NCBI GenBank assembly: GCA_041663445.1
Contig: JBAYMR010000003.1
Location: 21,123-85,122, forward strand
Direction of reading: 5' to 3'
DNA from: Candidatus Micrarchaeia archaeon
GTDB lineage: Archaea; Micrarchaeota; Micrarchaeia; Anstonellales; Anstonellaceae
Length of the DNA stretch: 64,000 nt
The notes below the pieces were generated by a model. That model was not told the DNA's origin. It saw only the letters and a program-made list of their open reading frames with translations, and made no database searches. Each line of letters begins with the position of its first letter. The stretch's first letter is position 1. Of this stretch, positions 42,866 through 62,570 are shown piece by piece. The position numbers and the translations under genes are program-made.

Positions 42866-45718
42866 TTGGAAAAGATAAGCGACGGGATTTGGGAAATGCC
42901 GCGCGAGGGCGCCATGAGGGTGGCTGCGCGCGTGTTTGCTACCGACAAGATGTTCGCCACCATGGGCAAGGACAGGACATTCGGGCAGCTTCGAAACGTC
43001 GCATCATTGCCCGGCATCGTGGGCAAGGCATGCCTCATGCCGGACGGGCACGAGGGCTACGGCTTCCCCATCGGCGGCGTGGCGGCATTCGACCCGGAGC
43101 AGGGCGGTGTGGTGTCGCCGGGCGGAGTCGGCTATGACATCAACTGCCTCGAGGCAAAATCAAAAATCCTCACCGAATTCGGCTTTTCATTGCCCATCGA
43201 GAAATTTGCAACTCAGTTTGAAAGCTTCGAGCGCTCAGGCGGCTATCTTGTGAGCATGTATAGCTCTGCCTTGCAGGTGCGCACGCTTGCAGGCAGCCTG
43301 CTTTCCTCTGCAAAGCCCGTCGCATTCATGTCGAAGAAAGCAGACAAGCGCATGCTTGAGGTAAAGACGCTCTGCGGGAAGCGGCTAGTGTGCTCAGAAG
43401 ACCACCCAGTTCTTACAAGAAGTGGCATGGTGAAAGCGGGCGAACTTGCTTCTGGCAAGGAAATTGCAGTCTCGCTTTTCGAGGGCGTTGAGTTTGAGCA
43501 GCCCGCTGCCTTTGCAGGCAAGGTGGAAGAGCTTGCCATCTGGGCCAAGCTCCTTGGCTACATGATGGGGGACGGTACGTTTTACACTTCTGGCGGGAAG
43601 ATGCGCACGGTTGCCTATGGAAAGCGCGAGGACTTGGAGGCGATGCAGAAGGACGTCTCAAGGCTGGGCTTCCATTCACACATCGTTGAAAGGCAAAGAA
43701 ACCACATCATTGAAACACAGTATGGCAGGAAGGAATTTTCCTCCTCAAACTGCGAGCTTCACATATACTCGCAGGAATTCTGCGAAAAGATTTCCGGGCT
43801 TGGCATGCCGATGGGCAAGAAAGCTTCGCAGGGCTATCGCGTGCCGCAGTGGCTTAACGAGTCGCCAAAATGGGTGAAAAGGCTTTTCCTCGCAGGCCTG
43901 TTCGGCGCAGAGCTCACCTCTCCAAAAACGCACTCGCGCACTGGCTTTAACGCGCCAATATTCGCGCAGAACAAGAACGAGGCGAATCTTGAGTCCGGCA
44001 GGATGTTCATGATTGACATCATGCGCCTGCTGGAGGAATTCGGAGTGAAAACCACCAAGATAGCCCAGAGGGCCGAACATAAAAACCTCGAGGGAAAGAC
44101 CTGCCGGCTCAGGCTTGAGATATCTGCCGAGGAAGAGAACCTTTTCCGCCTTTTCACCCTCGTGGGCATTGAATATTCAGTGCACAAGGCCAAGCTTTCC
44201 GAAATCGCCTCGCTTTACATCAAAAGGAAGCAGAAGTTGTCAGGAAAGCGTGCAGCCATTGCTGCTCGCGTGCGCGAGCTTAAGCAGAAAGGCGTAAGGC
44301 TCTCCGAGGCTCAGCAGCTTCTTTGCAGCGAAATTGCAAATGCGCGCTTCATAGAGCGTGCCTATTACGAAGGAAGAGTGCCAAGAATATCGCAGGGCTT
44401 TGAGCCATTCGAAAAGTTTGTCGGGAGGATGACGGCTGAAATCTCCTCAAACGGCGTGCTGTTTGACGAAATCGCCTCGATAACAGAAGTGCCCTACACT
44501 GGCGACGTCTATGATTTCACGGTGGAAGGCTCGCACAACTTTGTGGCGGATGGCATAATTGTTTCCAATTGCGGCGTAAGGCTCATCTCCACCCCGCTTA
44601 CTTCAGCCGAGGTGCGCGCGAAAATGCGCCAGCTCGTGGACCTTCTTTTCAAGAACGTCCCGTCGGGAGTCGGCTCCAAGGGCAAGCTGCGCGTGACGGA
44701 ACGCGAGCTTGACGAGGCCCTCACGCGCGGCATTGACTGGGCAATAGACTCGGGGTACGGCACGCGGCAGGACAAGGAAAGGACGGAGGAAGGCGGCAGG
44801 ATGGAGGGCGCAGACCCGTCAGCCGTCACTGAAAAGGCGAAAAAGAGGGGCTTGCCCCAGTTCGGGACGGTGGGCGCGGGCAACCATTTCGTCGAGATAC
44901 AGGATGTCGGGGAAATAATGCTCCCTGACGTAGCCGAAAAGTTCGGCGTGAAAAAAGGCAACGCCGTTGTCATGCTCCACTGCGGCTCGCGCGGGTTCGG
45001 GCACCAGGTGTGCGACGATTCCCTGCGCGACATGCTTGCGGCATCAAGGAAATACGGGATAGCGCTTCCCGACCCGGAGCTTTGCTGCGCGCCCATAAAT
45101 TCCCCCGAGGCGGAGAAATACCTCAAGGGGATGCGCTGCGCGGTGAATTACGCATTCTGCAACCGCCACATCATGATGCACTGGGTGAGGGAAACATTCG
45201 ACGAGGTGTTCGGCAAGGGCACGTCCGACCAGATGCCGCTTGTCTACGACGTGTGCCACAACATAGCAAAATTCGAGGAGCACACGGTGGACGGGCAGAG
45301 GAAGAAGGTGTGCGTTCACCGCAAAGGCGCCACACGCGCATTCGCCGCGGGCAGGATGGAAGTGCCCGCGATTTACCGCGACATCGGCCAGCCGGTGATA
45401 ATCCCGGGCAGCATGGGCACATCCTCCTATCTGCTTGTGGGCAAGCAGGGGGCGATGGACAACACGTTCGGCTCCTCATGCCACGGCGCAGGGCGTGCAA
45501 TGAGCCGCTCGCGCGCAATCCACACGTGGAAGGGCAATGCCATCCAGGGCGAGCTTGCGGGCAGGGGCATAATGGTCAAGTCCACCGAGTCGGAGCTTCT
45601 TGCCGAGGAGGCGCCGGGCGCCTACAAGGACGTTGACGAGGTCGTGCTTTCGGTCCAGGCTGCCGGCATCTCGGACATCGTCGCGAAGCTGCTGCCGATG
45701 GGCGTTGTGAAGGGTTAA
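42866..45718 (+). CDS. rtcB: RNA-splicing ligase RtcB interrupted by an intein
   Basis: PDGHEGYGFPIGG, GGVGYDIN|C, GNHFVE, HCGSRG, HRKGAT, HGAGR and EEAPGAYK. Confidence 0.96.
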   Translation: MEKISDGIWEMPREGAMRVAARVFATDKMFATMGKDRTFGQLRNVASLPGIVGKACLMPDGHEGYGFPIGGVAAFDPEQGGVVSPGGVGYDINCLEAKSKILTEFGFSLPIEKFATQFESFERSGGYLVSMYSSALQVRTLAGSLLSSAKPVAFMSKKADKRMLEVKTLCGKRLVCSEDHPVLTRSGMVKAGELASGKEIAVSLFEGVEFEQPAAFAGKVEELAIWAKLLGYMMGDGTFYTSGGKMRTVAYGKREDLEAMQKDVSRLGFHSHIVERQRNHIIETQYGRKEFSSSNCELHIYSQEFCEKISGLGMPMGKKASQGYRVPQWLNESPKWVKRLFLAGLFGAELTSPKTHSRTGFNAPIFAQNKNEANLESGRMFMIDIMRLLEEFGVKTTKIAQRAEHKNLEGKTCRLRLEISAEEENLFRLFTLVGIEYSVHKAKLSEIASLYIKRKQKLSGKRAAIAARVRELKQKGVRLSEAQQLLCSEIANARFIERAYYEGRVPRISQGFEPFEKFVGRMTAEISSNGVLFDEIASITEVPYTGDVYDFTVEGSHNFVADGIIVSNCGVRLISTPLTSAEVRAKMRQLVDLLFKNVPSGVGSKGKLRVTERELDEALTRGIDWAIDSGYGTRQDKERTEEGGRMEGADPSAVTEKAKKRGLPQFGTVGAGNHFVEIQDVGEIMLPDVAEKFGVKKGNAVVMLHCGSRGFGHQVCDDSLRDMLAASRKYGIALPDPELCCAPINSPEAEKYLKGMRCAVNYAFCNRHIMMHWVRETFDEVFGKGTSDQMPLVYDVCHNIAKFEEHTVDGQRKKVCVHRKGATRAFAAGRMEVPAIYRDIGQPVIIPGSMGTSSYLLVGKQGAMDNTFGSSCHGAGRAMSRSRAIHTWKGNAIQGELAGRGIMVKSTESELLAEEAPGAYKDVDEVVLSVQAAGISDIVAKLLPMGVVKG
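43145..44569 (+). mobile_element. Intein (475 aa) with LAGLIDADG homing endonuclease in rtcB
   Basis: Begins CLEAKSKI, block B SEDHP, LLGYMMGDG and FLAGLFGAE motifs, block F VYDFTV, ends IIVSN before the extein Cys. Confidence 0.93.
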
Positions 45719-48412: not shown

Positions 48413-49099
48413 TTACTTTTTCCCGTCGGTGTGCTGCGAGAAGAACTGTTTCCTGGCGTCAGGCGCGGGCTTTTTTTCCTTCCTGCGCCCCTCGGAGAGC
48501 GGCTCCTCGATGCCAAGCTGCCCCTCTTCCTCCTCCATCATCCTCCTTTCCTTGAGGTTGAACCTCTCCTGGCTTTTCCTCCGCCTCTCATTGTCCTCCT
48601 GCTCGCTTGGCGCCCTGATGCCGATTTTTCCCGGCGGAGGAATCTGGATAACTTTTGGCTTCTGCCTCACGCCGAGCGCAAGCGCCATTTTTTCCACGAA
48701 AAGCGAAAGCAACGAAGCGCCCCCCGGGCTTGCGCCGCCGGGCGCCCCGACCGAGTAGCAATTGGAGCAAAGCTTCCTGCCAAGGATGGCATAAAGCGTG
48801 TCGGTTTCCCGCCCGCACCGCTCGCAAATCCCGAGGGCGTTGCCCTTCTCCCCCGCCCTTCCATCCCCCGCCTTGCCCCTCTTCTCCTCGTCTTGGATGT
48901 CCATTATGCAATATGAGCAGTAAAGCCGCGAACTGTGCATGCGGAGCTCGTAGCTGGGGAGGTACATCCCGCAGCGCTGGCACTGCACGTTTGCGCTGCC
49001 GCCCTGCGCGCCGCCTGCCGACTCGCAGTTCTGGCAAATCATGTCCCCGCCCGCGTCGAATTCCCCGAGCGGCCCCCCGCATTTTATGCAGCTTGCCAT
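48413..49099 (-). CDS. Multi-zinc-finger protein
   Basis: Six CxxC pairs (CIKC, CQNC, CQRC, CSYC, CERC, CSNC) and a charged C-terminal tail. Confidence 0.7.
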   Translation of the reverse strand: MASCIKCGGPLGEFDAGGDMICQNCESAGGAQGGSANVQCQRCGMYLPSYELRMHSSRLYCSYCIMDIQDEEKRGKAGDGRAGEKGNALGICERCGRETDTLYAILGRKLCSNCYSVGAPGGASPGGASLLSLFVEKMALALGVRQKPKVIQIPPPGKIGIRAPSEQEDNERRRKSQERFNLKERRMMEEEEGQLGIEEPLSEGRRKEKKPAPDARKQFFSQHTDGKK

Positions 49100-49474
49100 G
49101 CCAAATGCTCGCATGCGGTGTATTTATTGGTTTGCAGCCCGCGCGGCTTTTCCCGAAAATCCCGCTCCGCATGGAATGCGATTAAATCAGTTATAATGTG
49201 CCTGATTGCGCTTAAATCAGACATTAGCTTGCCGTTTTCAAAAAAATCAAGGATAGAAATGCCAAATCAAGCCAAAATGCTTATTACAGTGCCTAATTGA
49301 ATAAAAGAAGCTTTTAAGGCTCTTTTTCTGAAAAAGAACGCTATAAATGCCCTCTTTTGTGCCAATAGCGCGTATAATCTTCCTTTTTTCTGCGATATGG
49401 CAAACGTTTATAAGCAATAACTCTCACGGAAATAGCATGTTTCCCTAGACCGGGAACGGGAGGAAAAGAAACAA

Positions 49475-50049: not shown

Positions 50050-52302
50050 TCACTTCGGGCAGTCGCTGTCGCATGCCGAGACTGCCGCGCGGTAGCGGCT
50101 CATCACCTGCGCGCCGTAGCTGTTCTTGGGCGAAAGCGAGCGCAGGTAGGCGATATAGTTCTGGTAACACTGCGTGTTCTGGCTGCCGTCACTTCCTGCG
50201 CAGCACTCGCCATTGGCATCGCGCTGCTTCACAAATTCGTTAAGCGTGGCTGGCTTGAGGCCGAAATAGCGGTTGGAGGCAAGATAATACTCAGCCCAGC
50301 CTTTTTCCTCCGGCTTCATGCCGCCTGTGCACTTTGAAAGCTGCGCCCAGTTGCTGTTCACCCAATTCTCGGTTGAACCGGAACCTCCGCGCAGGACGTC
50401 CGCGAACTTGTTCACGCCGCAGCACGCGCTCTGGCTGGCGTCAAACGGGTTGTAGTTTTCCCCGCCGCAGTTGGCAACTGGCGCAGGGACGCCGCCGCTC
50501 ACCTGCCCGTATGGATTGTCTATCGTGTATGCCTTGCCCGGGTATTCTATGCACTGCGCGAGCCCGTACGCGCACGGCTTCTGCTTCTTGCCGTTCTGCG
50601 GGTTTATGCCTGTGCATTTGTCTTTCTGGCACTTGGGGTCGTCCGCCATGCCTGCAAGCTCGCATATCTGCGCCATCGTGTACTTCTCCGGGTTGCATGC
50701 CGAATAATCATCATCCACGCACGTTGAGACTGCATACGGGTCAAACCCGCTTTCCTGCTCGAACTCCGCGCGCATGTATGTCGTGCTTATGTCCGCATCG
50801 TCCGCGCGCTCGTCTATTATTGGATAAGGCTCGCAATGGTTCCCGTCAAATCCGCCGGCAGTGCCGCTGTAATAAACGTATGGCATGGATGTTTCTGCAG
50901 GGCAGGCCTCCCCGCAGCCGAGCTTGGCTATTTTTGCCTCCGGCACCACCTCATCGCTGGAAAAGCCCTGCCCGCTGTTTATCATGGTTGCGGCATGGAG
51001 GCTTGGCTGGTCGTTCGTCATCACTTCGCACGATGAGCCCTGGCCGTTCCTGGAGAATATGAGTGGATTACGGTATTCGCTGTTCGCCCCCACTTCCTGG
51101 CACATGTCGGCCCACGCATTCATCTGGGGGTGCTTCTGCGACCCATTGGCGCTCAGCATCCCGAAGCTGCAGCCCTGCACGCCGTTGCACGGAAGCGAGC
51201 CGCTGCCATCCACGAACTCGTAAAAGCCCATGCCAAGCACTCCCGAGCTTGCAAGCCCGCCCGTGCGCGTGAGCAATTCCTGGTAAAAGCCGCTTACCAT
51301 AGTGCCGTCCCACTGGCAGGAGCCGTCGCTATTGTTGCCCTCGCTTGCGCCAGCGTAAAGCCATATCGTGGGCTTGTTGTAGTTTTTGAGTATGTAGCGC
51401 GAGAAGTTCAGGTTCTCGTAAATTATCCTGTCGGCATCGCAGTGGGGGTAGTCGTTTGCGCGGAAGCCGAAGCCTGCTGCATCTATGCTGTCAAGCATCG
51501 TGGTGTCTATCCCGTCCGGCGGCACGCCAATCACCTTGTAAAGCGCATTGTAGTCGTTTGGCTTCACTGCCAGCACGGTCATGCATTTTGTGCAGAAATG
51601 GCGGATGTTGTAAAGCTGCTGCTTCACATTGCTTATTGCATTGTCGTCCGAGCTGTTCAGCCATACTTCTGTTGTGACAAACACGGGCCCGATGTCCGCA
51701 GCCTGGAATGCGCTCGCAATTTCCTGGGTTCTTGAAGGGTCAATTGCCTTGCCCTCGGTATAATATATGTAAAGCGGCAGCGTGCTCCGCTGGAGCCAGC
51801 AGGCAGCGCGGGAGACCTGCGGCACGCGCGGCGGTGAATTTTTTGTGCCCTTCATCCACTTGGTGGCAAGCTGCAGCGTGTAGTTGCAGTAAAGGTTGGC
51901 GTGTCCGGTGGAGACGAAAGACTGCCCGGCTCCCAGCCCGAACACGCGCATCTGCGTGCTGTTGTCGCTTTCCACTATTTCCTCGTAATCCGTTTCATTG
52001 CACTTGCTGATGCTGCAGTTCCCGCCCTGGAGGTTGCTGTCATAGTAGCCGACCAGCCAGCCGAGCCCCAGGAAGCCATACGATGTCTTGTTGCTGCATG
52101 CCATGCAGTAGCATGGCTTGTTGCCAGGAATCCCCTGGCAGATAAGCTCGCTGTCGTTGAGGTATTTTGGCACGGTCATGTCCCCTCCGCTCACCGTCTC
52201 GATTGGGTTCCCATTCTGGTCCTGCAGCACGCAGCCTGGCACTGTGAGCAGAAGCACGGCAAAAAGCGCCAACAGCGCCGGAGGTTTCCATTTAATAGAC
52301 AT
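50050..52302 (-). CDS. Cys-rich lipoprotein with a glycoside-hydrolase-like barrel and a C-terminal lytic transglycosylase (SLT/lysozyme-like) domain
   Basis: Lipobox LLLTVPG|C; MRAEFEQESGFDPYAVS, AYGLAQ and NPFDASQSACCG motifs. The start overlaps the stop of the upstream giant gene. Confidence 0.7.
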   Translation of the reverse strand: MSIKWKPPALLALFAVLLLTVPGCVLQDQNGNPIETVSGGDMTVPKYLNDSELICQGIPGNKPCYCMACSNKTSYGFLGLGWLVGYYDSNLQGGNCSISKCNETDYEEIVESDNSTQMRVFGLGAGQSFVSTGHANLYCNYTLQLATKWMKGTKNSPPRVPQVSRAACWLQRSTLPLYIYYTEGKAIDPSRTQEIASAFQAADIGPVFVTTEVWLNSSDDNAISNVKQQLYNIRHFCTKCMTVLAVKPNDYNALYKVIGVPPDGIDTTMLDSIDAAGFGFRANDYPHCDADRIIYENLNFSRYILKNYNKPTIWLYAGASEGNNSDGSCQWDGTMVSGFYQELLTRTGGLASSGVLGMGFYEFVDGSGSLPCNGVQGCSFGMLSANGSQKHPQMNAWADMCQEVGANSEYRNPLIFSRNGQGSSCEVMTNDQPSLHAATMINSGQGFSSDEVVPEAKIAKLGCGEACPAETSMPYVYYSGTAGGFDGNHCEPYPIIDERADDADISTTYMRAEFEQESGFDPYAVSTCVDDDYSACNPEKYTMAQICELAGMADDPKCQKDKCTGINPQNGKKQKPCAYGLAQCIEYPGKAYTIDNPYGQVSGGVPAPVANCGGENYNPFDASQSACCGVNKFADVLRGGSGSTENWVNSNWAQLSKCTGGMKPEEKGWAEYYLASNRYFGLKPATLNEFVKQRDANGECCAGSDGSQNTQCYQNYIAYLRSLSPKNSYGAQVMSRYRAAVSACDSDCPK

Positions 52303-55300
52303 CATAATCACTGCCATAATTTCCTGTGATGAGCGCCAGTTCCATGTACTCTTCCCTGGTGTTATCGGATATTCTCCTGCTGCCAGGGCTGCTGATGTAG
52401 TGTGCCCTCTTCATCTTCCTTATCACCCACCTGGCCGGGGCGAACTGGCTCAGGTAATCGCTTGTTCTTTCTCCCATCTGCACCAGGTTCTGTGCTTTAA
52501 ACCTGCTCACCCAGCGTGACTGGTAAAGGTCCCGCGGATATTCGTATTCTTCCGGCTTCTGCCTATGTTCCTTGGGCGCGTGATTAATCAGCCGGTTTAC
52601 TTTCCTTGTAAGCAAAGGCTCTTCAAACGTAGATGACAGGCTGGACATCGCTGGGTTAAGATAAGCAAGATTCTTATAAGCTCCCCTGATAATCGGCACC
52701 CACACTGGCGACATGAACGCAAGCGTATAGTTGTTGATTGACGAATAGTTTACCTCTCTGCTCTGCATCTTCATCAGGTGCATCATCACCGGCACGTCGG
52801 TTTTGTAGTTCTCTGCGACAGAGTCCATCCTGGTCTGGAAACGGTCCGTGAAGTATATTTCCTTTGTATCCTGGTCATATCTCGCCTCCCAGTAGCTCTT
52901 CAGCGTGCCAAGGTGGCTCTTCTCATCTGCATTGTCCACAGTGCGCGCAACCTGGGGGAACGAGTGCCATTCGCCGCTGCCAATGGGTGCGGATTGCAGC
53001 ATTCCCGGGATGGTAGGGGTGAATACGTTGGTGTGGAACATGATATACATGTCCAGGAACCTGTTCCTCGAGCCGTCCTCCGCAATGTCCCTTCCCGAAA
53101 GCACATCCCTGATATATCTGCCTCTCTTATCATTAAAGTTTGCCGCGTTGTCCAATGTTTTGAACAGCGCGTCCGTGTAAGTTTTCTCCTTCGCAATATC
53201 CATCTCTATCGCTGCTTCGCTCAGCCTGCGGTTTGCCTCTGCCAAACCTATTTTCTCGCCATTCACATCCACGTCTAAGCCGCCGTTTTTTTCAATGAAC
53301 TTGTCAAACTCGCGCACCTGGTCAATGTACCTCTGCTGCAAGGACAACTGATATGGGGTGTCCCAGTACTGGTGGCTTTCCATGCCCATCTTGTCCAGCT
53401 GGTTTCTCACCCAGCTTCGGCCCTCCTCTCCCCTGTCATAGCCACCTGTCGCCTGGTGGGCGGCAATCATGTGCCCAACGCCTGTGAATGTCACGGTGTC
53501 CTGCAGCCTGGCCTTGAAAAAGTCGGTGTATGTCTTTGCCTGGAACAGGGCAATGAACGGCGCTTTCATGTATGATGTTGGACCCCTATGTTCATGGTCT
53601 GGCGCGTACATCATGTCGCTTTTCACCGGGGCGGGGTAGCCTGTGGTGTAGCGTGCCATGAAGCTGATTTTGTCGTTCCACCACTTGTGCACGGCGTATG
53701 CAATGTTAAGCTGGAGGTGCATGTGCTGTTCCCAAAGTGAGTTGGTCGCCCAGAAGCGCGCCCGCTCGTAGACATTCTGCCCTGTGTGATAGCCAACGTA
53801 CCACGCCCAGTCCATGCCAGGCGCGCCTGCGCCTATTGCGGTGCGCGGGTCACGCATGACGCTTGATTCGGTTATCTCGTAAAATACATCCTTCTGCCCC
53901 TGCACCTGATGGCTGTCCAAAAGCCTGCTTACAATCCCCATGTTCCACATTGTCCTTGCCGGGTTATACGTCGGGCCGCTGCCGTGGCTTCCGTTCCAGG
54001 TGATAAGCATCCTGTTCAAGTCGCCATAGTCGTGCTTTGCCTCCCTGTATTCCCTCCTCATCTCATTTTTCTTGTCCTGTATTTCGCTGCGCAGCGCATC
54101 GTACTTCGAATCCGCAATTTCCCCCCTTGCATGCAGCTTGTCCAGCGCACGAAGCTCGAGGCGCGCATTGTAATAGTTGTTCTCAGCCTCGCCAATGTCT
54201 TTCACCACTGTCGAGGCAATCCGCCCGCGCCACTCATGCCACCATGCCTGCTTGCCTTCCCAATACGTAACATCCTTCCCTTTCGCAAGATTTTCCATTT
54301 CATTCGTCAGCCTGTTCCGGTCCGAGGCATCCAGCTGCGTCTTGAAATCATCCGATTTTATCTTTTTTGCCGCATACATCTCGTCAATCCTGTCGAGCGC
54401 CGCGTTGCCAGTTTTCCACCTTTTGTTCCCGTCCATCATTTCTTCGCTTATGGCGCCCCCAAACCTGTCCAATGCCTGGCGGAGCTGGTACTGTGCCGAA
54501 TACCATTCCTGCATCTTGTCCAGCCTATCGGCAAATGCACCATATGATGACTCTGCCGAGCGCATGGCATATCCGTAATACTTTGACCGTATCCATTCCC
54601 TGGTCCTATCAAGCCCGGTGTATTCGCCAAAGGCATCGCTCTTTTTTCTGCCATACTCGTTGAAGTCGCGGGTCGAGACCACCCGCAACCCTGCATCTTC
54701 TGGCTTGCTGCCTTCATTGATTTTTACCATGCTCTCGATTATTTCCTTGCGGAACGCCACCCTTTTCTCAGCACCCATTGCCATCGCTTGCGCTTCTTTT
54801 TCCTTGAACGGGTCGGTGTATATCCACCTGATTTTTTCATTCCCATCCTTATCCTTATAGGTATCCTTCTTAAGTATCACAAATCCGATTTCCCTGCTGG
54901 TATAAAACGAACCCATGGTGCGCGCAACAAGCGCGGCATAGTTGGGCACATCCCCTTTGCGCACAATGCCGTCCCTTTGCTCGATTGGCAGGAGCTTTCC
55001 ATCCTTGCCCTTCTGCCACGTCATGTACTTCTGGTCAAACTCCACCATGGGCACGGACTTCCTGTCCACGCTCAGCAAAAGCCCCACGCCGTTTTTCATG
55101 TCGCCCCAGCGGTAGCCTCGATCGATGATGGCATCATATGCGTCAACATCGAACACGGCAAGCCCTTTCTCCCCCGTCTTCAGTATGCCCCTCTTTTTCA
55201 TGTCATCTGCGAATTTCTTGTCGTAGAAAATGCTTTCCCCGTGCACCAGGCCCTGGTAGAACTTTTCATATTTTTTCAGGTCGTCGTTATAGGCCCTGCG

Positions 55301-58300
55301 TGTGGCGTCCAGCAGCCCGAGCACGTTGTCGCCCCTGCTGCTGCCTTCCCATTTATGCGATACCGTGAAGCCGAAAATTGCTTCCCACCCCCTATTTTCG
55401 AAAATCAGCCCTTCCACATCATGGCTCTTGTACTCTGCATAGCCCATTTCGCGCCTATACGCCGGCTTTTCGAATCTGAGGTAGTCCATGTTGGTTTTGA
55501 ACGTGCCTGAGGTTCTCACATCGTATGCTGCCGCATTCCCGCTTGCCATGTACCTGGCAGCGTCTTTGCCTCCGTGCAGTATCTCGGTGGCTGCATAGTT
55601 CCTTGCCACCCAATCTGTGTTGTATTTCTTCATATCTGTAAGGATGGACTTCAGCATCGTTTCCAGCGGGTCCTTGCTCATGTTGGCGGGCGTTGTCGCA
55701 TCCTTCCTGCCTGCCATTATCTCCCTTACCTTTTGCTGGAAGAGGTATTCCTCCCTCGCACTGTCTGGATTCCCTATCACCTTGCCGAAGAACTGGTCCA
55801 GCGCGTCAATGTTGGTGAATACTGGGATGGGCTTCCCTTTCTCGTCTAGCTTGAGGTTGCCGTTGCCGTCTTTCTTGTAAAGGAACTCGTCTTCGATGCC
55901 ATGCTTTTTCATCGCATATATCATGAATAGCTCAAGCGGGTTCTTTCCGAACCAGCAGCCTTCGCGCACCATCTGCCCAAAGTCAATATCAGGCAGCCTT
56001 CCATCCTTGCCCCTATTCTCCAGCTGCCTGTCCAGTTTTTTTATGAGCGCATCCATTATGCCCGTCGTTATACTCTCGTACTTCGCATAAATTTCCTGCG
56101 CATTCTTCCCGTCAAGGAGATATTTTTTCATCTCCTTTCTCCTGTCATCATACGCTTTGAACGTTACGTTTTCCGCTTCTTTCAGCGACTTGAGGGAATC
56201 GAGCGTCTTGCGCGCCGCGTTAAGCTCCTTTTGGGAAAGCGTGCCACCCTTGGCCCCTGATGCCAGCTTGTCCAGCGCCGCCCGGTCCGCATCCGAAAGC
56301 GCCACCCCGGCTTTCTCCATCTGCTGTTTCATCTTTTCCACTGCGCCTGCAACCCCCTTGCCGCTGGTGGCTGCGCTGCGGAGGTCAATCAGGCTCGCGT
56401 AAAGCTCGCGGTGCTTGAACAGTTCGTTTACTAAGTCATCCCCGTACTTTTCCCTAAGCCTCTTTTCCTTGCCTACTTTGTCCCTGCTGTCCATCTCTAT
56501 TTCTACGTCTTTTTTCTCTATTATCTTGTAAATGTTTTTCGCATCTTCCTCATTTGAAAGGTAGATAAGCATTTTTTCCTTCAGTCCTTTCTCCACTTCG
56601 CCGAACGTCTTGATGGCAGTGCCGAGTGTTGTCAGGTATTCCATCGTTTCCTTGTCGCTCTTGGACGCTTTTTTGGCCAGTTCCAAAAGCTCTTCCAGCT
56701 TTTTCTGCTGGTTCATGCCCCTGTCATTTATTATCCTGGCCACTTCCTGCTCATAGCCTATTGACTCGCGAAGCTGCGTTGCAAATGCCTTTGCAACATC
56801 CTTGTCGGTTTTGGAAAGGCCCTTGAGGCCGTCAATGGTTTTCACAATCTGCTTCAGCTGCCTGTCCAGGTCTGCCGTTTCAAGGTTCTTCCCGTTCTTG
56901 TCCATCCCATTCCCGCTGTAAAGTTTATCCAGCGCAGCGGCAAGCTCGTGGCTCTCCTTGCTATTGACCTTTTCCCTCAGTTGTTTCTTTATTTTTTCAA
57001 AAATATATTCCATGCCCTTCCGCCTGGCAAGATCATCCAGCTCCCTCTTATCCTGCTCTTTCTTTGGCAGTATTTTCCTAAGCTCGGCTGCAAGCTTGCG
57101 TGAAGCGTTGCTGCGCGTTGGTATGCTGGAAAGCACGTTGAAGCCAAGCGCCGCGAACATCCTGTTGAGCTGGTCGGTTTCGTGCTGCGCCTTGCTATTT
57201 ACCGTATTGTAAAGTGTCACCAGCCTTTTCGTGAGCAGGTCATGCTTCGTCTCGAAAGCCGCCCAGCTTTTGCCTGTGATTTTTTCATAATATTTGCCGA
57301 ACTTCGTCTTCTTGCCGTCCTTGACGTGGAGGCTCTCGAACATCTTGTAAATGCGTTTGGGCTTGCCATTCTTGTCGTGTCCTGCCCTATATGCCATCTG
57401 GCCCAGCATCTCGTTTCTCACTCCCTTGATTGCCGCGCGCGAGCTTCGGAACTGCGCACCAACATCCAGCACCTTCCCGGGTATTGTCAGCACATGCCCC
57501 ACGAACGGGACGTAGCCAAGTATGTTGACGATTTTGGAAGATTCAAAGGCATTCACGGCTTTCGTTGTCTTGTCAAGACCCTTGCTCACCTTTTTCGAAA
57601 GAATGTTCGTTCCGCCCCTGCTCCTTGCCGCCTCCATCATTTTCATTGCCGCGTGCGTATCCAGATAAATCGTCAAAAGTCCGCTTGACAGCTTGAGGGA
57701 GCGCTCATAATCATGCATCTTCCACTTGAAGCTAATATTGCTCTCATCCTTCCTCTTCACCGGCGCGTATTTCCCCATCAGGTTGTTCCAGTCCCTCAGC
57801 AGCATCGCCCTGTCTGCATCGGAAAGCGGCTCCTTGCCTCCCATCATCTTTTCCGCTTTGTCATACAGGTTCTGCATCTCCTTCTTTGCCTTTTCCGCGT
57901 CCATGCCGTTTTTCCTGGCAAAGCGCGCAATTTCCTTGACTGAATCGCGGCGTGATTTCACCCCGATCATCATGTACCTGCGCTTGACTTGGCGCAGCAT
58001 CTGCGGGGACTGCCCCATCCTGACCCTGAAGGTCTTGGCCTTCGGCAGCTTGGGCGTGGTGATATCAAAAAGCGAGAGCGGGTCCCTGCCCGCATAGTAC
58101 ATTGCAGCTATGAGCAATCCTGCGATGAGCATGGCCGGGAAGCAGAACGGGAGCCTGTTCCGGTCGCTTATCGCCTTGTATATCGCTGGCGCAAAAGCCG
58201 AAAGCCCTGCATTGCTGACTGGGCACACCACTGCAGTCTGGGAAGCTTCCGGGAATTTTGCCGAGCCGCGGACCATCGAGTCCGCCCTTATCGTCACATA

Positions 58301-58774
58301 TCCGCAGCTCTTGTAATCATCAATGGGGTGCACCGTGCCGTTTGCGTCCTTGTAGTGCGTGATTTTGCACGAGGCCATTCCCTGCTCGCTCGTGTTGATT
58401 GGGTCGCACGCCTTTTCGCCTGCCCCATCGACTATTTCCATTCCTTCGAACGTGAAGTGCAATGCCGAGCAGTTGAGCGGATCCACTTCGGCCGTGAAAT
58501 TGTCAATCGAGTAATTGCCCATCTGGTGCAAGTCGTCGAGGTTTCCTGCCTCGGTCACTTTTTTTGTCACTTCCGCTATCGCGGTTTCATTGTACTGGCT
58601 GAAGTAAGTGATATTGAGGAAGGTCACCCTCACGGTGACATTGGTCTCGTTCACCGATGTCGAGATGAACGTGCTGAAGGCCGCGTCGGAGTAGGGCGCC
58701 TGGGCAAGCGCAAGATGCGCCTGCAGCGCCAGCAGTAAGAGAAAAAGCCCTGATGCTGGTACGGCTGACCTCAT
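52292..58774 (-). CDS. Giant (2160 aa) membrane-anchored hypothetical protein
   Basis: Signal peptide, Cys-containing ~180-aa domain, TM helix FPAMLIAGLLIAAMYY, then ~1900 aa of charged, helical sequence. Confidence 0.85.
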   Translation of the reverse strand: MRSAVPASGLFLLLLALQAHLALAQAPYSDAAFSTFISTSVNETNVTVRVTFLNITYFSQYNETAIAEVTKKVTEAGNLDDLHQMGNYSIDNFTAEVDPLNCSALHFTFEGMEIVDGAGEKACDPINTSEQGMASCKITHYKDANGTVHPIDDYKSCGYVTIRADSMVRGSAKFPEASQTAVVCPVSNAGLSAFAPAIYKAISDRNRLPFCFPAMLIAGLLIAAMYYAGRDPLSLFDITTPKLPKAKTFRVRMGQSPQMLRQVKRRYMMIGVKSRRDSVKEIARFARKNGMDAEKAKKEMQNLYDKAEKMMGGKEPLSDADRAMLLRDWNNLMGKYAPVKRKDESNISFKWKMHDYERSLKLSSGLLTIYLDTHAAMKMMEAARSRGGTNILSKKVSKGLDKTTKAVNAFESSKIVNILGYVPFVGHVLTIPGKVLDVGAQFRSSRAAIKGVRNEMLGQMAYRAGHDKNGKPKRIYKMFESLHVKDGKKTKFGKYYEKITGKSWAAFETKHDLLTKRLVTLYNTVNSKAQHETDQLNRMFAALGFNVLSSIPTRSNASRKLAAELRKILPKKEQDKRELDDLARRKGMEYIFEKIKKQLREKVNSKESHELAAALDKLYSGNGMDKNGKNLETADLDRQLKQIVKTIDGLKGLSKTDKDVAKAFATQLRESIGYEQEVARIINDRGMNQQKKLEELLELAKKASKSDKETMEYLTTLGTAIKTFGEVEKGLKEKMLIYLSNEEDAKNIYKIIEKKDVEIEMDSRDKVGKEKRLREKYGDDLVNELFKHRELYASLIDLRSAATSGKGVAGAVEKMKQQMEKAGVALSDADRAALDKLASGAKGGTLSQKELNAARKTLDSLKSLKEAENVTFKAYDDRRKEMKKYLLDGKNAQEIYAKYESITTGIMDALIKKLDRQLENRGKDGRLPDIDFGQMVREGCWFGKNPLELFMIYAMKKHGIEDEFLYKKDGNGNLKLDEKGKPIPVFTNIDALDQFFGKVIGNPDSAREEYLFQQKVREIMAGRKDATTPANMSKDPLETMLKSILTDMKKYNTDWVARNYAATEILHGGKDAARYMASGNAAAYDVRTSGTFKTNMDYLRFEKPAYRREMGYAEYKSHDVEGLIFENRGWEAIFGFTVSHKWEGSSRGDNVLGLLDATRRAYNDDLKKYEKFYQGLVHGESIFYDKKFADDMKKRGILKTGEKGLAVFDVDAYDAIIDRGYRWGDMKNGVGLLLSVDRKSVPMVEFDQKYMTWQKGKDGKLLPIEQRDGIVRKGDVPNYAALVARTMGSFYTSREIGFVILKKDTYKDKDGNEKIRWIYTDPFKEKEAQAMAMGAEKRVAFRKEIIESMVKINEGSKPEDAGLRVVSTRDFNEYGRKKSDAFGEYTGLDRTREWIRSKYYGYAMRSAESSYGAFADRLDKMQEWYSAQYQLRQALDRFGGAISEEMMDGNKRWKTGNAALDRIDEMYAAKKIKSDDFKTQLDASDRNRLTNEMENLAKGKDVTYWEGKQAWWHEWRGRIASTVVKDIGEAENNYYNARLELRALDKLHARGEIADSKYDALRSEIQDKKNEMRREYREAKHDYGDLNRMLITWNGSHGSGPTYNPARTMWNMGIVSRLLDSHQVQGQKDVFYEITESSVMRDPRTAIGAGAPGMDWAWYVGYHTGQNVYERARFWATNSLWEQHMHLQLNIAYAVHKWWNDKISFMARYTTGYPAPVKSDMMYAPDHEHRGPTSYMKAPFIALFQAKTYTDFFKARLQDTVTFTGVGHMIAAHQATGGYDRGEEGRSWVRNQLDKMGMESHQYWDTPYQLSLQQRYIDQVREFDKFIEKNGGLDVDVNGEKIGLAEANRRLSEAAIEMDIAKEKTYTDALFKTLDNAANFNDKRGRYIRDVLSGRDIAEDGSRNRFLDMYIMFHTNVFTPTIPGMLQSAPIGSGEWHSFPQVARTVDNADEKSHLGTLKSYWEARYDQDTKEIYFTDRFQTRMDSVAENYKTDVPVMMHLMKMQSREVNYSSINNYTLAFMSPVWVPIIRGAYKNLAYLNPAMSSLSSTFEEPLLTRKVNRLINHAPKEHRQKPEEYEYPRDLYQSRWVSRFKAQNLVQMGERTSDYLSQFAPARWVIRKMKRAHYISSPGSRRISDNTREEYMELALITGNYGSDYDVY

Positions 58775-58854
58775 GGTGTCTCCCAGATTGTTTTCGCCCT
58801 CTCATTCTTATAAATATGCTTCCCGAAATAGGCGAAAGGGCAGGTGCTGGCGCG

Positions 58855-60288
58855 ATGTTTGGATACCTTCTGACAACCCCCGCGGAACTGCTTGCGAACA
58901 GCAACGTATTCATGGCTTTCGCATTTGCAGTCTCCATCATCTCGCTCTCTTACATGGCGGGCGAGTTCATGTCCATGGCAAGCCTGAAAGGGTTTGCCAA
59001 GGCGGAGCTTTACGAGCTGGGCGTGAGTGCAGTCATACTCGTTCTCCTTCTTGTCATGATCACTCCCGACGGGCCGTTCGACATGGTTTCGCGCGGATTC
59101 ATGCCATCCGTCAGCCCCACCGGCTCCGGGCCCGAGCTTTGCGAGCAATGGAAGGAGATACACAAGCCCGTGGTGCTTGACCCGCTGACCGGCACATGGT
59201 TCGCGCAGAATGGCAACATTGCATTCGGCTCCGCCAACTATTTCCTGGGCTGCAAGCCCAAAATCAGCAACATCATCCACGCTTTTTCAGGCTGGACCGA
59301 CCCGTCATCGGGCGTGCCCGCAGATATTTTTCCCGGCGTGATTTCGTCCCGCCTGATGAAAGGCTACACCTCGCTCATGCTTACCCAGATGTTCACGGGT
59401 TTCCTGTCCGGGCTTTCCACCAACATCCCGCTCATCTTCATGGGAATTCCCCTTGAAATAGGGTTCATGCCGTTCGTCGGCATCGGGCCAGTCAATCAGG
59501 CGCACACAGGGATTGTCGACCTGCTGGGCACGGTGTTTGCTGCTTTCACTGCGCAGAACATGCTGCTGACTTTCATCGAGGAAGCCGCGATTCCCGTTTT
59601 CCTCCCGTTCGGCATGATACTGCGCGCCTTCCCTTTCAGCAGGAAAACCGGCTCCACCATAATCGCCGTGGTGGTGGCCGCGTATTTCGTCTATCCCCTG
59701 TCCATCCTGTTAAACCAGCAGATATGGCTCATGGTTGTCTCCCCGCCATGCCCCGCCGGCTTCCAATGCCTCGCAGTGGGTGCGACATGCCAAAACGACG
59801 AGGATTGCGCCTCGTTCGACTGCCGCGCGGAAAGGTGCGTGGTGCCGCTCACGGACTTCACGGAATACCATTCAATCTATTCGCTCTGCAAAGGCACATA
59901 CACCCCGTCCAATTCGGAGAGGACGCTGTCCATCATTGGGATGGAACAGGACAAGCGCATGATGGAGATGTATTTCTCGGGCACGCCTACCAGCGTGGAA
60001 CCCACAAAAACCGAGGGGCGGCTGCACGACGGGTTTTTATCTCTTATTGAAAGGCACGGCATATCCGCATTGAAGTTCGGAACATCGTTCCTTTTTGCGC
60101 CAGTCGGGGCTGCCGCACAGACCGCGTTCAGCGAAATCGAGGTGTTGGTGATGGATGCAGGGCAATACGCCCTGCTCGCACTAATATTCACGGTGTTAAC
60201 AGTGGTCATATCCCTTACCATGCTCAAGGACATCGCCATATTGATAGGGGGCGAGCCGCGCGTGTTCGGGCTTTCAAAACTGGTGTAA
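58855..60288 (+). CDS. Polytopic membrane protein, CedA/VirB6-like paralog 1
   Basis: AKAELYELGVSAVIL; LPFGMILRAFPFSRKTGSTIIA...YFVYP; Cys-rich loop; C-terminal IGGEPRVFGLSKLV. Confidence 0.65.
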   Translation: MFGYLLTTPAELLANSNVFMAFAFAVSIISLSYMAGEFMSMASLKGFAKAELYELGVSAVILVLLLVMITPDGPFDMVSRGFMPSVSPTGSGPELCEQWKEIHKPVVLDPLTGTWFAQNGNIAFGSANYFLGCKPKISNIIHAFSGWTDPSSGVPADIFPGVISSRLMKGYTSLMLTQMFTGFLSGLSTNIPLIFMGIPLEIGFMPFVGIGPVNQAHTGIVDLLGTVFAAFTAQNMLLTFIEEAAIPVFLPFGMILRAFPFSRKTGSTIIAVVVAAYFVYPLSILLNQQIWLMVVSPPCPAGFQCLAVGATCQNDEDCASFDCRAERCVVPLTDFTEYHSIYSLCKGTYTPSNSERTLSIIGMEQDKRMMEMYFSGTPTSVEPTKTEGRLHDGFLSLIERHGISALKFGTSFLFAPVGAAAQTAFSEIEVLVMDAGQYALLALIFTVLTVVISLTMLKDIAILIGGEPRVFGLSKLV

Positions 60289-60305
60289 CGCAGTGCGCAG
60301 CATGA

Positions 60306-61274
60306 TTGAAAAATGAAAATGGTGTCTTGATGTACCTGTTGTCAGCAGCATACTCGTCCGATTCCATGCTTAGCCTGGTGGGCACCATGATCGGGACCGG
60401 CGCCGCCACCATGGTGTTCATGCTTGCCCTTTTCTACATGGCAGCCCAGTTTTTCAAGAAGCCCGAGTATGAGGCGTTTGTCTCGATAGAAATCTACCAG
60501 CTCGCAGTTTCGCTCATGCTGTTCACCACGATATTCGGCGCCGCCTATTTTGCAAACGAGTTGTCTGCCTCGTTTTCATCCGCCATTTCCGGCACCAGCG
60601 GGGACGCATTCGACGTGGGGAGCAACTACCTCAACTACGTGGCAAACGAGGTTGCATTGCAGGCCATAAAGAAGCTCCAGGGGCTGATGCTCCTCTCGCA
60701 GTGGATGGGCTCCATCACCATGCGCTTTGGCGCCGGGGTGTGGGGCGTGGTCGTGCCCGCATTCCCCTCTTTCATAGTGATAGAGAAGGTGATGGAGTTC
60801 CTGCTCATGCTGGTTTCACCGTTCACTGCCAGCCTGATTGTGCAGCAGGTGGGGTTGCAGATCATCAAGGCGACCATGCTGCCATTTGTCCTTCCGATGG
60901 GCGTGGTGCTGCGCATCTTCCCGCCCACCCGCGACGCAGGCTCGTTCATCATCTCGACCGCGTTGGCATTCCAGGTAATATTTCCCTTCAGTTACGTGAT
61001 GCATGCCCAGATAGTGAAAGGCATACTCATCCCGAACGCATATGCCAATGAAAAGAACGTCGCCGACTACATGACGAACACGCTCGGAGCCGGCAGGCTG
61101 ACTGCATTTGTGAGCGAGAACGGGCTTTTTGACATAACCAGCATGCTATTCAGCCCCATCCTGTCGCTTTCCTTCCTGCTCCTGCAGGCGGTTTTCCTTC
61201 CCGCGCTCAGCATGGTGCTCACAGTGGCATTTATCAAGAGCTTCAATAAATTCATAAGCCAGAAATTCAGCTGA
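60306..61274 (+). CDS. Polytopic membrane protein, CedA/VirB6-like paralog 2
   Basis: VSIEIYQLAVSLML; LPMGVVLRIFPPTRDAGSFIIS...VIFP. Start uncertain. Confidence 0.65.
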   Translation: MKNENGVLMYLLSAAYSSDSMLSLVGTMIGTGAATMVFMLALFYMAAQFFKKPEYEAFVSIEIYQLAVSLMLFTTIFGAAYFANELSASFSSAISGTSGDAFDVGSNYLNYVANEVALQAIKKLQGLMLLSQWMGSITMRFGAGVWGVVVPAFPSFIVIEKVMEFLLMLVSPFTASLIVQQVGLQIIKATMLPFVLPMGVVLRIFPPTRDAGSFIISTALAFQVIFPFSYVMHAQIVKGILIPNAYANEKNVADYMTNTLGAGRLTAFVSENGLFDITSMLFSPILSLSFLLLQAVFLPALSMVLTVAFIKSFNKFISQKFS

Positions 61275-61280
61275 TATTGT

Positions 61281-62570
61281 ATGGCAAGCAAAAACCTATT
61301 GATTGTGGCGGGCATCCTGCTTTTGCTTTTCGCCAGCTTCGGCTGCACCAGCCCGCCTTCGGGCGCTGCCACGCCCAAAACCAGCTCAATGGGCTGGAAC
61401 CTGCTCGTAGGCGTGGCAGTGATGATAGTGGTGCTGCTGCTTGCGCTTGGCTACATGGTCGCGGCTTTCTTGGGTGATGACCGGCTCAAGGCATGGGTGA
61501 GCCGCGAGCTTGGGCAGGTCTTCTTCTCAGTGGTGATAATCGTCGTTGTGGTCGCGCTTGCAGGCTCTCTTGACCAGTGGCTGAATCTGCTCTCCCTTGC
61601 AGGTGGCTCCACTTGGCAGAATTACGTGAGCACCGGGGTGTGCTGCCCGGCAGGAGGCGCATGCAGTTTCCCAACAAGCAGCCAGCCGCGCGGAAGGGCG
61701 TGCCACATTGAAATCGCCTCGGACTACCTACAGGTCCTCTATGAAAGCACAAGGCAAAGCGCGAGCGCCGACCTGAGCAACTACGGGATGTTCGCCTTTC
61801 TATCCCATCTATCGGTAAGTAAGTCTCTTGTGCTCAAATACCTGGCTATAAACTCCACCATGCCATTCGCAGGCCTGGAGCTTGCTGCCGAATTCTTCTC
61901 GAACCTGTTCGACCTTTCCATAAAGACCATGATGCTTTTGCGTGCGCAGCAGATTTTCCTGGACTTCATGTGGTATCCGCTGTTTCCTGTGATGCTTTCC
62001 ATGGGCTTGGTGCTGCGCATATTCTATTTCACGCGCAAGCTAGGGGGACTGATGATTGCGCTGGGCCTTTCCTTCTACGTGGTTTTCCCCATGTTCTACG
62101 TTCTTGCCAACGGCATCATGTGGGGCTTCATGGACAATCCCGCCTCGCTTTCGGTTGGCATGACATATAATTCCGACCAGACAACCGGCACGCCCCTGCC
62201 ACTGTATGGCCAGAACCAGCTTGCGCCGCAGCAGCGCGCCAAGAACGTGTTTAACTCTGGCACATCGGTGGATATTGACATCTGCAACGCAAGCACGGTG
62301 CAGGAGTTCAATGCTGCTGCCAGCGAGTTTGACAGGTTCGGCAGTTCCTGGAACACGTTTGAAGGCGGCAAATGGTATCAGCAGTTCTGGACGTTCATAT
62401 CTGTCCGTGCATTTTCCTTAGACGGGCCCATCGCCAACCTCGCATTCCTCATGGTTTTCACCATGATTATCCCGTTCCTTTCGCTCATGACGTCTCTTGC
62501 CGCATTCAAGGTGCTCTCGCCCATGATAGGCGGAGATGTGGAAATCTCACTGCTCTCGAGGCTGATATGA
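61281..62570 (+). CDS. Polytopic membrane protein with lipobox-like N-terminus, CedA/VirB6-like paralog 3
   Basis: ASFG|C; VSRELGQVFFSVVII; MGLVLRIFYFTRKLGGLMIA...YVVFP; C-terminal IGGDVEISLLSRLI. Confidence 0.65.
   Translation: MASKNLLIVAGILLLLFASFGCTSPPSGAATPKTSSMGWNLLVGVAVMIVVLLLALGYMVAAFLGDDRLKAWVSRELGQVFFSVVIIVVVVALAGSLDQWLNLLSLAGGSTWQNYVSTGVCCPAGGACSFPTSSQPRGRACHIEIASDYLQVLYESTRQSASADLSNYGMFAFLSHLSVSKSLVLKYLAINSTMPFAGLELAAEFFSNLFDLSIKTMMLLRAQQIFLDFMWYPLFPVMLSMGLVLRIFYFTRKLGGLMIALGLSFYVVFPMFYVLANGIMWGFMDNPASLSVGMTYNSDQTTGTPLPLYGQNQLAPQQRAKNVFNSGTSVDIDICNASTVQEFNAAASEFDRFGSSWNTFEGGKWYQQFWTFISVRAFSLDGPIANLAFLMVFTMIIPFLSLMTSLAAFKVLSPMIGGDVEISLLSRLI

Follow-up and report, generated by a model that had tools for sequence, protein, structure and literature searches.

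Lytic transglycosylases of glycoside hydrolase family 23 (GH23), family 1, such as MltE, MltC and Slt70 of Escherichia coli and MltF of Pseudomonas aeruginosa, have a helical, lysozyme-like fold and carry a Glu-Ser, a GL(M/A)Q and an aromatic-Asn motif in this order, and MltE and MltC are lipoproteins. Proteins with an SLT domain are also known from archaea of the DPANN group: large extracellular SLT-domain proteins, up to 3,000 amino acids long, are described for Woesearchaeota and Pacearchaeota, and bacterial walls are taken to be what they act on (PMC8204110, with citations in PMC12352652 and PMC9723730). A survey of metagenome-assembled genomes (MAGs) of Micrarchaeota annotates extracellular GH23 and lysostaphin-like M23B enzymes, and suggests bacterial wall breakage as the function of an M23B peptidase in a further Micrarchaeota genome (Vazquez-Campos et al. 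2021, PMC8561730). Here we describe a gene on the reverse strand of a 64,000-nucleotide stretch of DNA (hereafter the window, meaning that whole stretch) from a Candidatus Micrarchaeia archaeon of the family Anstonellaceae. Its product joins a predicted N-terminal (beta/alpha)8 barrel, or triosephosphate isomerase (TIM) barrel, to a C-terminal domain that shares both ancestry and fold with SLT/GH23. We consider it probable that this protein is a lipid-anchored, two-module surface enzyme whose SLT module cuts the bacterial murein of other cells and which is coupled to a giant membrane protein encoded directly upstream.

The C-terminal domain of the window protein shares with the GH23 family-1 enzymes both the helical fold and the order of the three motifs. 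It differs from them in its length (about 270 amino acids, compared with about 190 in MltE), in about 45 extra residues between motifs I and II (where 62 residues, six of them Cys, separate ES from GLAQ), in a motif III that reads (Y/F)NPF, in a similarity to the Pfam model that stays below the cut-off, in its fusion to a TIM barrel, and in its host, an archaeon without murein. The proteins of Woesearchaeota and Pacearchaeota (PMC8204110) resemble the window family in that they come from DPANN archaea, are extracellular, carry SLT and have a proposed role in the binding or breakdown of bacterial walls. The window family, in contrast, consists of predicted lipoproteins of 700-1,000 amino acids with a novel TIM barrel, is specific to Micrarchaeota, and has the giant protein as a separate gene; the Woesearchaeota and Pacearchaeota proteins are set apart by their size and by belonging to other DPANN phyla. 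The Micrarchaeota survey (PMC8561730) gives annotations only, and the shared TIM-SLT family, the lipobox and the pairing with the giant protein went unrecognised there; one family member (P0086) comes from its data set and was deposited as 'Peptidase family M23 [Candidatus Gugararchaeum adminiculabundum]'.

A search within a literature library found no paper tying Micrarchaeota to a lytic transglycosylase family, and a 2025 comparative study of the phylum, which credits Anstonellales with considerable metabolic capacity, makes no mention of these enzymes. SLT proteins of DPANN archaea are already known, but the present architecture and gene pairing look undescribed. What is new here is an orphan TIM barrel, a Cys-rich SLT subfamily that escapes Pfam, a lipobox anchor, and an invariant giant-protein partner.

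A divergent SLT/GH23 domain at the C-terminus

The gene is a single open reading frame (ORF) that encodes 755 amino acids counted from the first ATG and ends with a stop codon at 50050-50052. Met5 (52305) and Met6 (52302) are other possible starts; the original prediction, a reading of the letters of the stretch, placed the end of the gene at Met6, whereas the database copy of the protein begins at Met5 and has 751 amino acids. The sequence motifs quoted in that prediction are all present in the translation of the ORF at the coordinates it gave. The features of the gene, in window coordinates, are the following (close homologues are a set of 46, and distant homologues an alignment of 111; 53 distant relatives were scanned against Pfam).

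50050..52317, reverse strand: whole gene, 755-amino-acid lipobox protein; its start runs 11-26 nucleotides into the end of the upstream giant gene
50053..50865, reverse strand: C-terminal domain, residues 485-755, divergent, Cys-rich and like the SLT/GH23 lytic transglycosylases (model, Foldseek, hhalign)
50749..50754, reverse strand: predicted catalytic pair Glu522-Ser523 of SLT motif I, part of EQES, with the codon of E522 at 50752-50754
50554..50565, reverse strand: GLAQ, residues 585-588, equivalent of SLT motif II (GLMQ in distant relatives)
50440..50451, reverse strand: YNPF, residues 622-625, variant form of SLT motif III (AYNxG); Y622, P624 and F625 are invariant in 46/46 close homologues
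51043..51960, reverse strand: predicted (beta/alpha)8 barrel, glycoside hydrolase-like, residues ~120-425 (AlphaFold2 and Foldseek)
52231..52317, reverse strand: signal peptide and lipobox, residues 1-29 (MAVIMMSIKWKPPALLALFAVLLLTVPGC); G28 and C29 are invariant in 46/46 close homologues
51985..52140, reverse strand: small Cys-rich, beta-rich N-terminal subdomain, residues ~60-111, with model strands at 69-75 and 101-106
50863..51042, reverse strand: Cys-containing linker, residues ~426-485, with invariant C430, C468 and C472

An AlphaFold2 model of the full protein, built on an alignment of 46 sequences, had a mean predicted local distance difference test score (pLDDT) of 88.9 and a predicted template modelling score (pTM) of 0.86, and arranged the chain as a Cys-rich beta subdomain (residues ~60-111), eight beta-alpha units (~120-425), a linker, and a helical domain (~485-755). 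Because the barrel dominated fold searches with the whole protein, residues 485-755 were also modelled alone, with an alignment of 25 fragments from the fetched loci (pLDDT 92.1). When this model was compared with the PDB by Foldseek, the top 42 matches were all GH23 family-1 lytic transglycosylases (MltE, MltC, MltF, Slt), with probabilities up to 0.99 and template modelling (TM) scores of 0.52-0.55 on MltE, and goose-type lysozymes ranked after them. The domain is thus helical and lysozyme-like in its predicted fold, in agreement with the SLT domain that had been proposed for it.

Sequence comparison with the window protein alone was uninformative: it gave no Pfam match at E<=10, its single-sequence searches against Pfam, NCBIfam and PDB sequences returned nothing meaningful, and neither did a full-length profile compared with PDB sequences. 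The Pfam SLT model (PF01464, cut-off 21.3 bits) is passed, however, by the orthologues P0045 (29.9 bits) and P0010 (25.7 bits), over profile positions 2-87 of 117, and in P0045 the match stretches 86 profile positions across 131 residues. Matches to SLT were found in 30 of the 46 close homologues at E<=1 and in 8 of the 53 distant relatives at E<=0.01, the best distant one being P0126 (35.6 bits, profile positions 6-110), which also matches M23 at 53 bits. Aligned by hhalign, the C-domain profile and residues 480-718 of P0126 gave a probability of 99.0% (E 7e-18), with EQES/WAES, GLAQ/GLMQ and YNPF/FNPF in register. The best PDB sequence match of the C-domain profile was MltC (E 0.11), exactly over the catalytic Glu-Ser motif. 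Together, the scores of the orthologues, the alignment with P0126 and the match to MltC establish homology to SLT by transitivity; the hidden Markov model of Pfam recovers the predicted domain in the orthologues, while the window protein itself remains under its cut-off.

The motif residues are well conserved in both sets of homologues. Motif I retains its Glu (E522) in 45/46 close and 97/111 distant homologues and its Ser (S523) in 43/46 and 88/111; motif II retains G585 in 46/46 and 108/111 and Q588 in 45/46 and 90/111; and motif III retains P624 in 46/46 and 106/111, with N623 in 97/111 of the distant set. These residues, together with F625 and Y684, lie far above the mean column identity of 11% in the distant alignment, and the motifs are therefore not due to chance. 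Downstream of GLAQ stand N623-P-F-D626 and S630-A-C-C-G634, and the Cys-rich interruption that had been described between the motifs is real, with its six Cys between motifs I and II.

A (beta/alpha)8 barrel without sequence relatives

The second, glycosidase-like domain of the original prediction was borne out at the level of fold. The motifs LYIYYT (residues 182-187), VFVTTEV (212-218), GFGF (282-285), KPTIWL (315-320) and GMGFYEF (362-368), all within 51050-51800, lie in the modelled barrel, throughout which the AlphaFold2 pLDDT exceeds 90. Foldseek comparison of the whole protein with the PDB returned solely (beta/alpha)8 glycoside hydrolases of clan GH-A (E 2.5e-6 to 4e-5), namely GH2 beta-glucuronidases (E 2.5e-6), GH5 mannanase, GH53 galactanase, GH10 and GH26, with TM scores of 0.54-0.59 on small targets (0.54-0.55 on the target for GH53 galactanase). 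With a library of viral folds, the whole protein matched phage GH5-domain proteins best (2.7e-6), and SLT/LT_GEWL phage proteins only at weak E-values of 0.07-0.3.

Like the enzymes of clan GH-A, the barrel has a conserved Glu that ends strand 4: Glu217, so placed by the secondary structure of the model, is kept in 104/111 distant homologues. Unlike them, it has no sequence match to a glycoside hydrolase, the residue before Glu217 is Thr, Ser, Pro or Ala and never Asn among the 111 distant homologues, and the carboxylate after strand 7 is not universal. E326, which follows strand 7, is kept in 38/46 close homologues, whereas in the distant alignment residue 325 is Asp in 56/111 and residue 326 varies; E367, after strand 8, is conserved solely in the close set. 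No Pfam glycoside hydrolase family matched any of the 46 and 53 family members scanned, a search with a barrel-only profile for annotated stand-alone relatives returned just fragments of the same family, and neither sequence nor profile searches gave a PDB sequence match for the barrel. As modelled, then, the barrel appears GH-A-like in fold without being a member of the clan, and it is an orphan at the sequence level.

We also observed the barrel at the C-terminus of a 2791-amino-acid protein of another Micrarchaeota genome (G093; L031:1047-9422, forward strand), which contains cupredoxin-like repeats and Cys-rich modules besides the barrel but lacks SLT. Within Micrarchaeota, the barrel is thus a mobile module.

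Signal peptide, lipobox and N-terminal subdomain

The N-terminus of the window protein consists of a basic n-region, a hydrophobic core and then LLLTVPGC, a signal peptide end of the lipobox form [LVI][ASTVIP][GAS]-Cys. Besides the invariance of G28 and C29 in the close homologues, C29 is kept in 101/102 ungapped distant homologues (101/111, with 9 gaps), and the consensus across the family is the canonical L-S-G-C. This sequence pattern supports the proposal that the protein is an exported archaeal lipoprotein, with Cys29 as the predicted site of lipid attachment. The protein has 36 Cys in total, of which 35 are in the mature part, and 10 N-x-S/T sequons, every one within the first 400 residues; such a content fits an exported, disulfide-bonded archaeal glycoprotein. 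The small N-terminal subdomain contributes the sequons NKT, NCS and NET and the invariant C60, C69, C74 and C101.

An invariant partner gene encodes a giant membrane protein

The gene directly upstream of the enzyme gene is the following.

52292..58774, reverse strand: upstream partner gene, encoding a 2160-amino-acid protein; an ORF that overlaps the enzyme ORF and has no Pfam match

The giant protein has a signal peptide, an ectodomain of ~180 amino acids with Cys and sequons, one transmembrane helix, a juxtamembrane motif DPLSLFDITTP, and then a K/E-rich tail of ~1,900 amino acids. In 17/17 loci with enough flanking sequence, the enzyme gene is directly preceded, on its own strand, by the end of a giant frame (1,570-2,244 codons, twice split). 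The pairing holds even in two distant loci with unlike neighbourhoods (purine/folate genes in one, an OPT transporter in the other), where the transmembrane-proximal region of the giant protein is homologous (E 2e-13 and 1e-10); recognisable conservation of the giant protein in these distant loci is confined to about 120 residues of that region. The pairing of the enzyme with the giant gene is the most conserved feature of the context. At loci L026 and L028 the giant gene is divided into two frames.

Diverging from this pair are six tandem paralogous genes for polytopic membrane proteins of 309-511 amino acids (window 58753-63914, forward strand, and L030:1051-3116), four inside the window and two just past its end, followed by SecF and SecD. 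The paralogues share a hairpin motif, LP.G..LR.FP.(T/S)R..GG, and most end in ...LS(K/R)LI, and none of the six has a Pfam match. The divergent array is conserved at other Micrarchaeota loci (L002, L003, L022, L026) and persists where the enzyme is down to ~32% identical. It is not adjacent at the two most distant loci, L005 and L006, and there no homology of the paralogues to the flanking genes was found.

The enzyme had been proposed to act as the VirB1 equivalent of the adjacent system. Stated in full, this explanation would have it open the wall of a partner cell for a conduit that resembles a type IV secretion system (T4SS) or Ced system and is formed by the giant protein and the paralogue array. 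In Gram-positive conjugation, hydrolases such as PrgK of pCF10 bring together SLT, LytM/M23 and CHAP domains, an arrangement that resembles the SLT/M23 combinations in the window family. VirB1 and PrgK are like the window protein in having SLT (with M23 in some relatives), in lying beside membrane-protein genes, and in being proposed to breach a wall locally, and the strict pairing with the giant gene and the retention of the array to ~32% identity are what such a function would lead one to see. However, no T4SS, Ced or ATPase family of Pfam was found in the genes that lie between 36.8 kb and a point 12 kb past the window end; the giant protein, the paralogues and the flanking genes all fail to match such families, and none of the neighbours has a Pfam match to VirB4, VirD4, HerA, FtsK, VirB6 or TrbL or to any ATPase. 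Moreover, the genes that come after the array are those for SecF and SecD, the array is not adjacent in L005 and L006, and the cluster belongs to the chromosomal core, in synteny with housekeeping genes, rather than being carried on a mobile element. With no such family detected nearby, 'VirB1 equivalent' can only be a functional analogy and not a statement of membership, and we think it quite unlikely that the enzyme opens walls for a conduit of this kind.

In a broader form, the six paralogues, the giant protein and the TIM-SLT lipoprotein as a wall-breaching part would constitute a new archaeal envelope apparatus for contact across domains, a doubtful proposition to which we give little weight. 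If it were true, a large order of non-acidophilic Micrarchaeota (probably Anstonellales) would attach to or tap bacteria rather than archaea.

Three further genes of this neighbourhood are recorded here as side observations. At 48413-49114 (reverse strand), a 233-amino-acid protein with several CxxC pairs (zinc-ribbon-like) and a basic, acidic-rich tail has a weak match to DUF7573 as its sole Pfam match, and its position is conserved in L002 and L003. RtcB tRNA ligase, encoded at 42866-45718 (forward strand), has 950 amino acids and contains an intein that bears a LAGLIDADG homing-endonuclease domain; its orthologue in L002 has 475 amino acids and no intein. About 8 kb past the window end, a free-standing ORF of 328 amino acids (L030:7707-8693, forward strand) matches HTH_3 and LAGLIDADG_3.

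Distribution of the family

A search of a word-indexed database returned 53 homologues of 42-66% identity; those with a name all come from MAGs of Micrarchaeota or Micrarchaeia, and none bears a functional name. HMMER, run exhaustively against 1.84 billion cluster representatives, returned 218 homologues at E<=1e-3, most of them 700-1,000 amino acids long and 25-35% identical. Scanning one genome per species gave 23 loci, labelled Micrarchaeota, Micrarchaeia or Anstonellaceae, once Woesearchaeota, and once 'uncultured archaeon' (unclassified). Among 301 genomes sampled across the phylum, 124 had a match; the gene was near-universal in the order to which the window belongs, and no sampled genome of several other families of Micrarchaeia matched.

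Some members carry an additional C-terminal part. In P0032, P0033 and P0036 (909-927 amino acids) and at L017:10001-12679, the TIM-SLT protein is extended by ~170 residues, and in one member, a close relative, this extension matches GDSL/SGNH hydrolase (E 1.4e-4). GDSL/SGNH domains include peptidoglycan O-acetyl-esterases, and the extension could be a glycan O-acetyl-esterase.

Evidence for the substrate and proposed mechanism

A C-terminal Peptidase_M23 domain is present in 6/53 distant relatives (best E 4.9e-24). Four M23-bearing relatives were examined singly: P0126 keeps ES, GLMQ and FNPF, whereas P0076, P0086 and P0188 have Ser, Asn or Asp in place of the SLT Glu and a degenerate motif II. 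The Glu is also lost in P0108. The gain of M23 together with loss of the Glu, in three of the four cases, looks like a swap of murein-cutting activities and suggests that murein is the substrate.

These losses also bear on whether the protein is an enzyme at all, as both domains might have been recruited to bind carbohydrate, or to play a structural part, in an envelope complex that includes the giant protein. The replacement of the Glu in P0076, P0086, P0108 and P0188 would agree with such a role, as would the single broadly conserved carboxylate of the barrel. Nevertheless, the window protein and 45/46 close homologues retain Glu-Ser along with the rest of the SLT motifs, the Glu persists in 97/111 distant ones, and its losses coincide with the gain of another hydrolase, so that we regard a purely non-catalytic protein as very improbable.

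A profile scan of the window genome (1.2 Mb, 89% complete) found no SEDS protein, penicillin-binding protein (PBP) transpeptidase, MurG or M23. It found one gene of the Mur-ligase fold, such as archaeal control genomes carry too, and this candidate is probably folate-related. As genes for murein synthesis are lacking, any murein substrate must be foreign. Self-wall remodelling was rejected on the same evidence, with SEDS, PBP transpeptidase and MurG absent and the Mur-ligase-fold gene standing alone. The target named in the original prediction, the wall of another organism, therefore remains the most likely one, and it is strengthened by the M23 fusions in relatives.

In the mechanism that we propose, a lipid on Cys29 would tether the exported protein to the outer face of the archaeal membrane. 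The tethered protein would be disulfide-rich and probably N-glycosylated, and would bear two glycan-active modules. Glu522, as the sole general acid/base, would cleave the glycan strand of bacterial peptidoglycan and leave 1,6-anhydro-N-acetylmuramic acid (anhydro-MurNAc) ends, and the barrel, with its conserved carboxylate Glu217, may remove or cut a different surface polysaccharide. Since the archaeon has no murein of its own, the enzyme would act on bacteria that it attaches to, preys on or feeds from. We suppose that the enzyme is co-transcribed with the giant single-pass membrane protein and probably works beside it.

Several observations weigh against this mechanism. The window protein reaches just 11.7 bits with Pfam SLT (at 50713-50817, in the whole-genome scan), motif III, although it stands at the expected place, reads as a conserved (Y/F)NPF and so deviates from AYNxG, and the Foldseek E-values of the C-domain are weak (0.05-1), as would be expected from inserts that break the core. 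The barrel lacks the Asn-Glu acid/base signature of clan GH-A, and in the distant alignment no second carboxylate is universally conserved in it. Muropeptide catabolism by way of AnmK was considered and is unsupported, with a score of just 15 bits for the anhydro-MurNAc kinase. GH23 includes chitin-active enzymes, chitinases among them, and hence substrates other than murein are possible. The gene is single-copy and core and lies among housekeeping genes, so that a role in the cell's own envelope would fit too. Finally, the hosts known or proposed for Micrarchaeota are archaea and not bacteria (PMC12892359).

The last three points would suit an enzyme that acts on a glycan other than murein, whether on the surface of an archaeal host, in a chitin-like or beta-1,4-linked N-acetylhexosamine polymer, or in the glycocalyx or S-layer of the archaeon itself, and that serves in remodelling or attachment. 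The barrel, likewise, resembles beta-glycanases (GH2, GH5, GH53, GH10, GH26) that have no murein activity, and MltE was crystallised with chitopentaose (PDB 4hjy, which is among the fold matches of the C-domain). On the other hand, SLT motifs I and II are canonical (GLMQ) in distant relatives, and both the M23 domains of relatives and the apparent replacement of the SLT Glu beside M23 point to murein. We accordingly judge a non-murein substrate unlikely, and prefer the bacterial murein of other cells as the substrate of the SLT module.

Implications for Micrarchaeota

Several of the hosts shown or proposed for Micrarchaeota, the Thermoplasmatales, lack a cell wall. The putative hosts of Micrarchaeota are Thermoplasmatales and Sulfolobales (PMC12892359), and as all hosts shown or proposed are archaeal, and several of them wall-less, it is unexpected that a surface enzyme resembling a murein cutter, with its motifs intact, should be near-universal in a whole order. 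For the study of protein families, the window protein represents a GH23 subfamily that is too divergent for the current Pfam model and a TIM-barrel family without sequence relatives outside the lineage. Its strict pairing offers a route into the role of the giant membrane protein. The enzyme is also a biochemical handle on whether these uncultured archaea interact with bacteria, and its size is suited to expression and assay. A gene for a predicted lipoprotein of this kind in a DPANN archaeon that lacks murein is a testable clue to action on bacteria.

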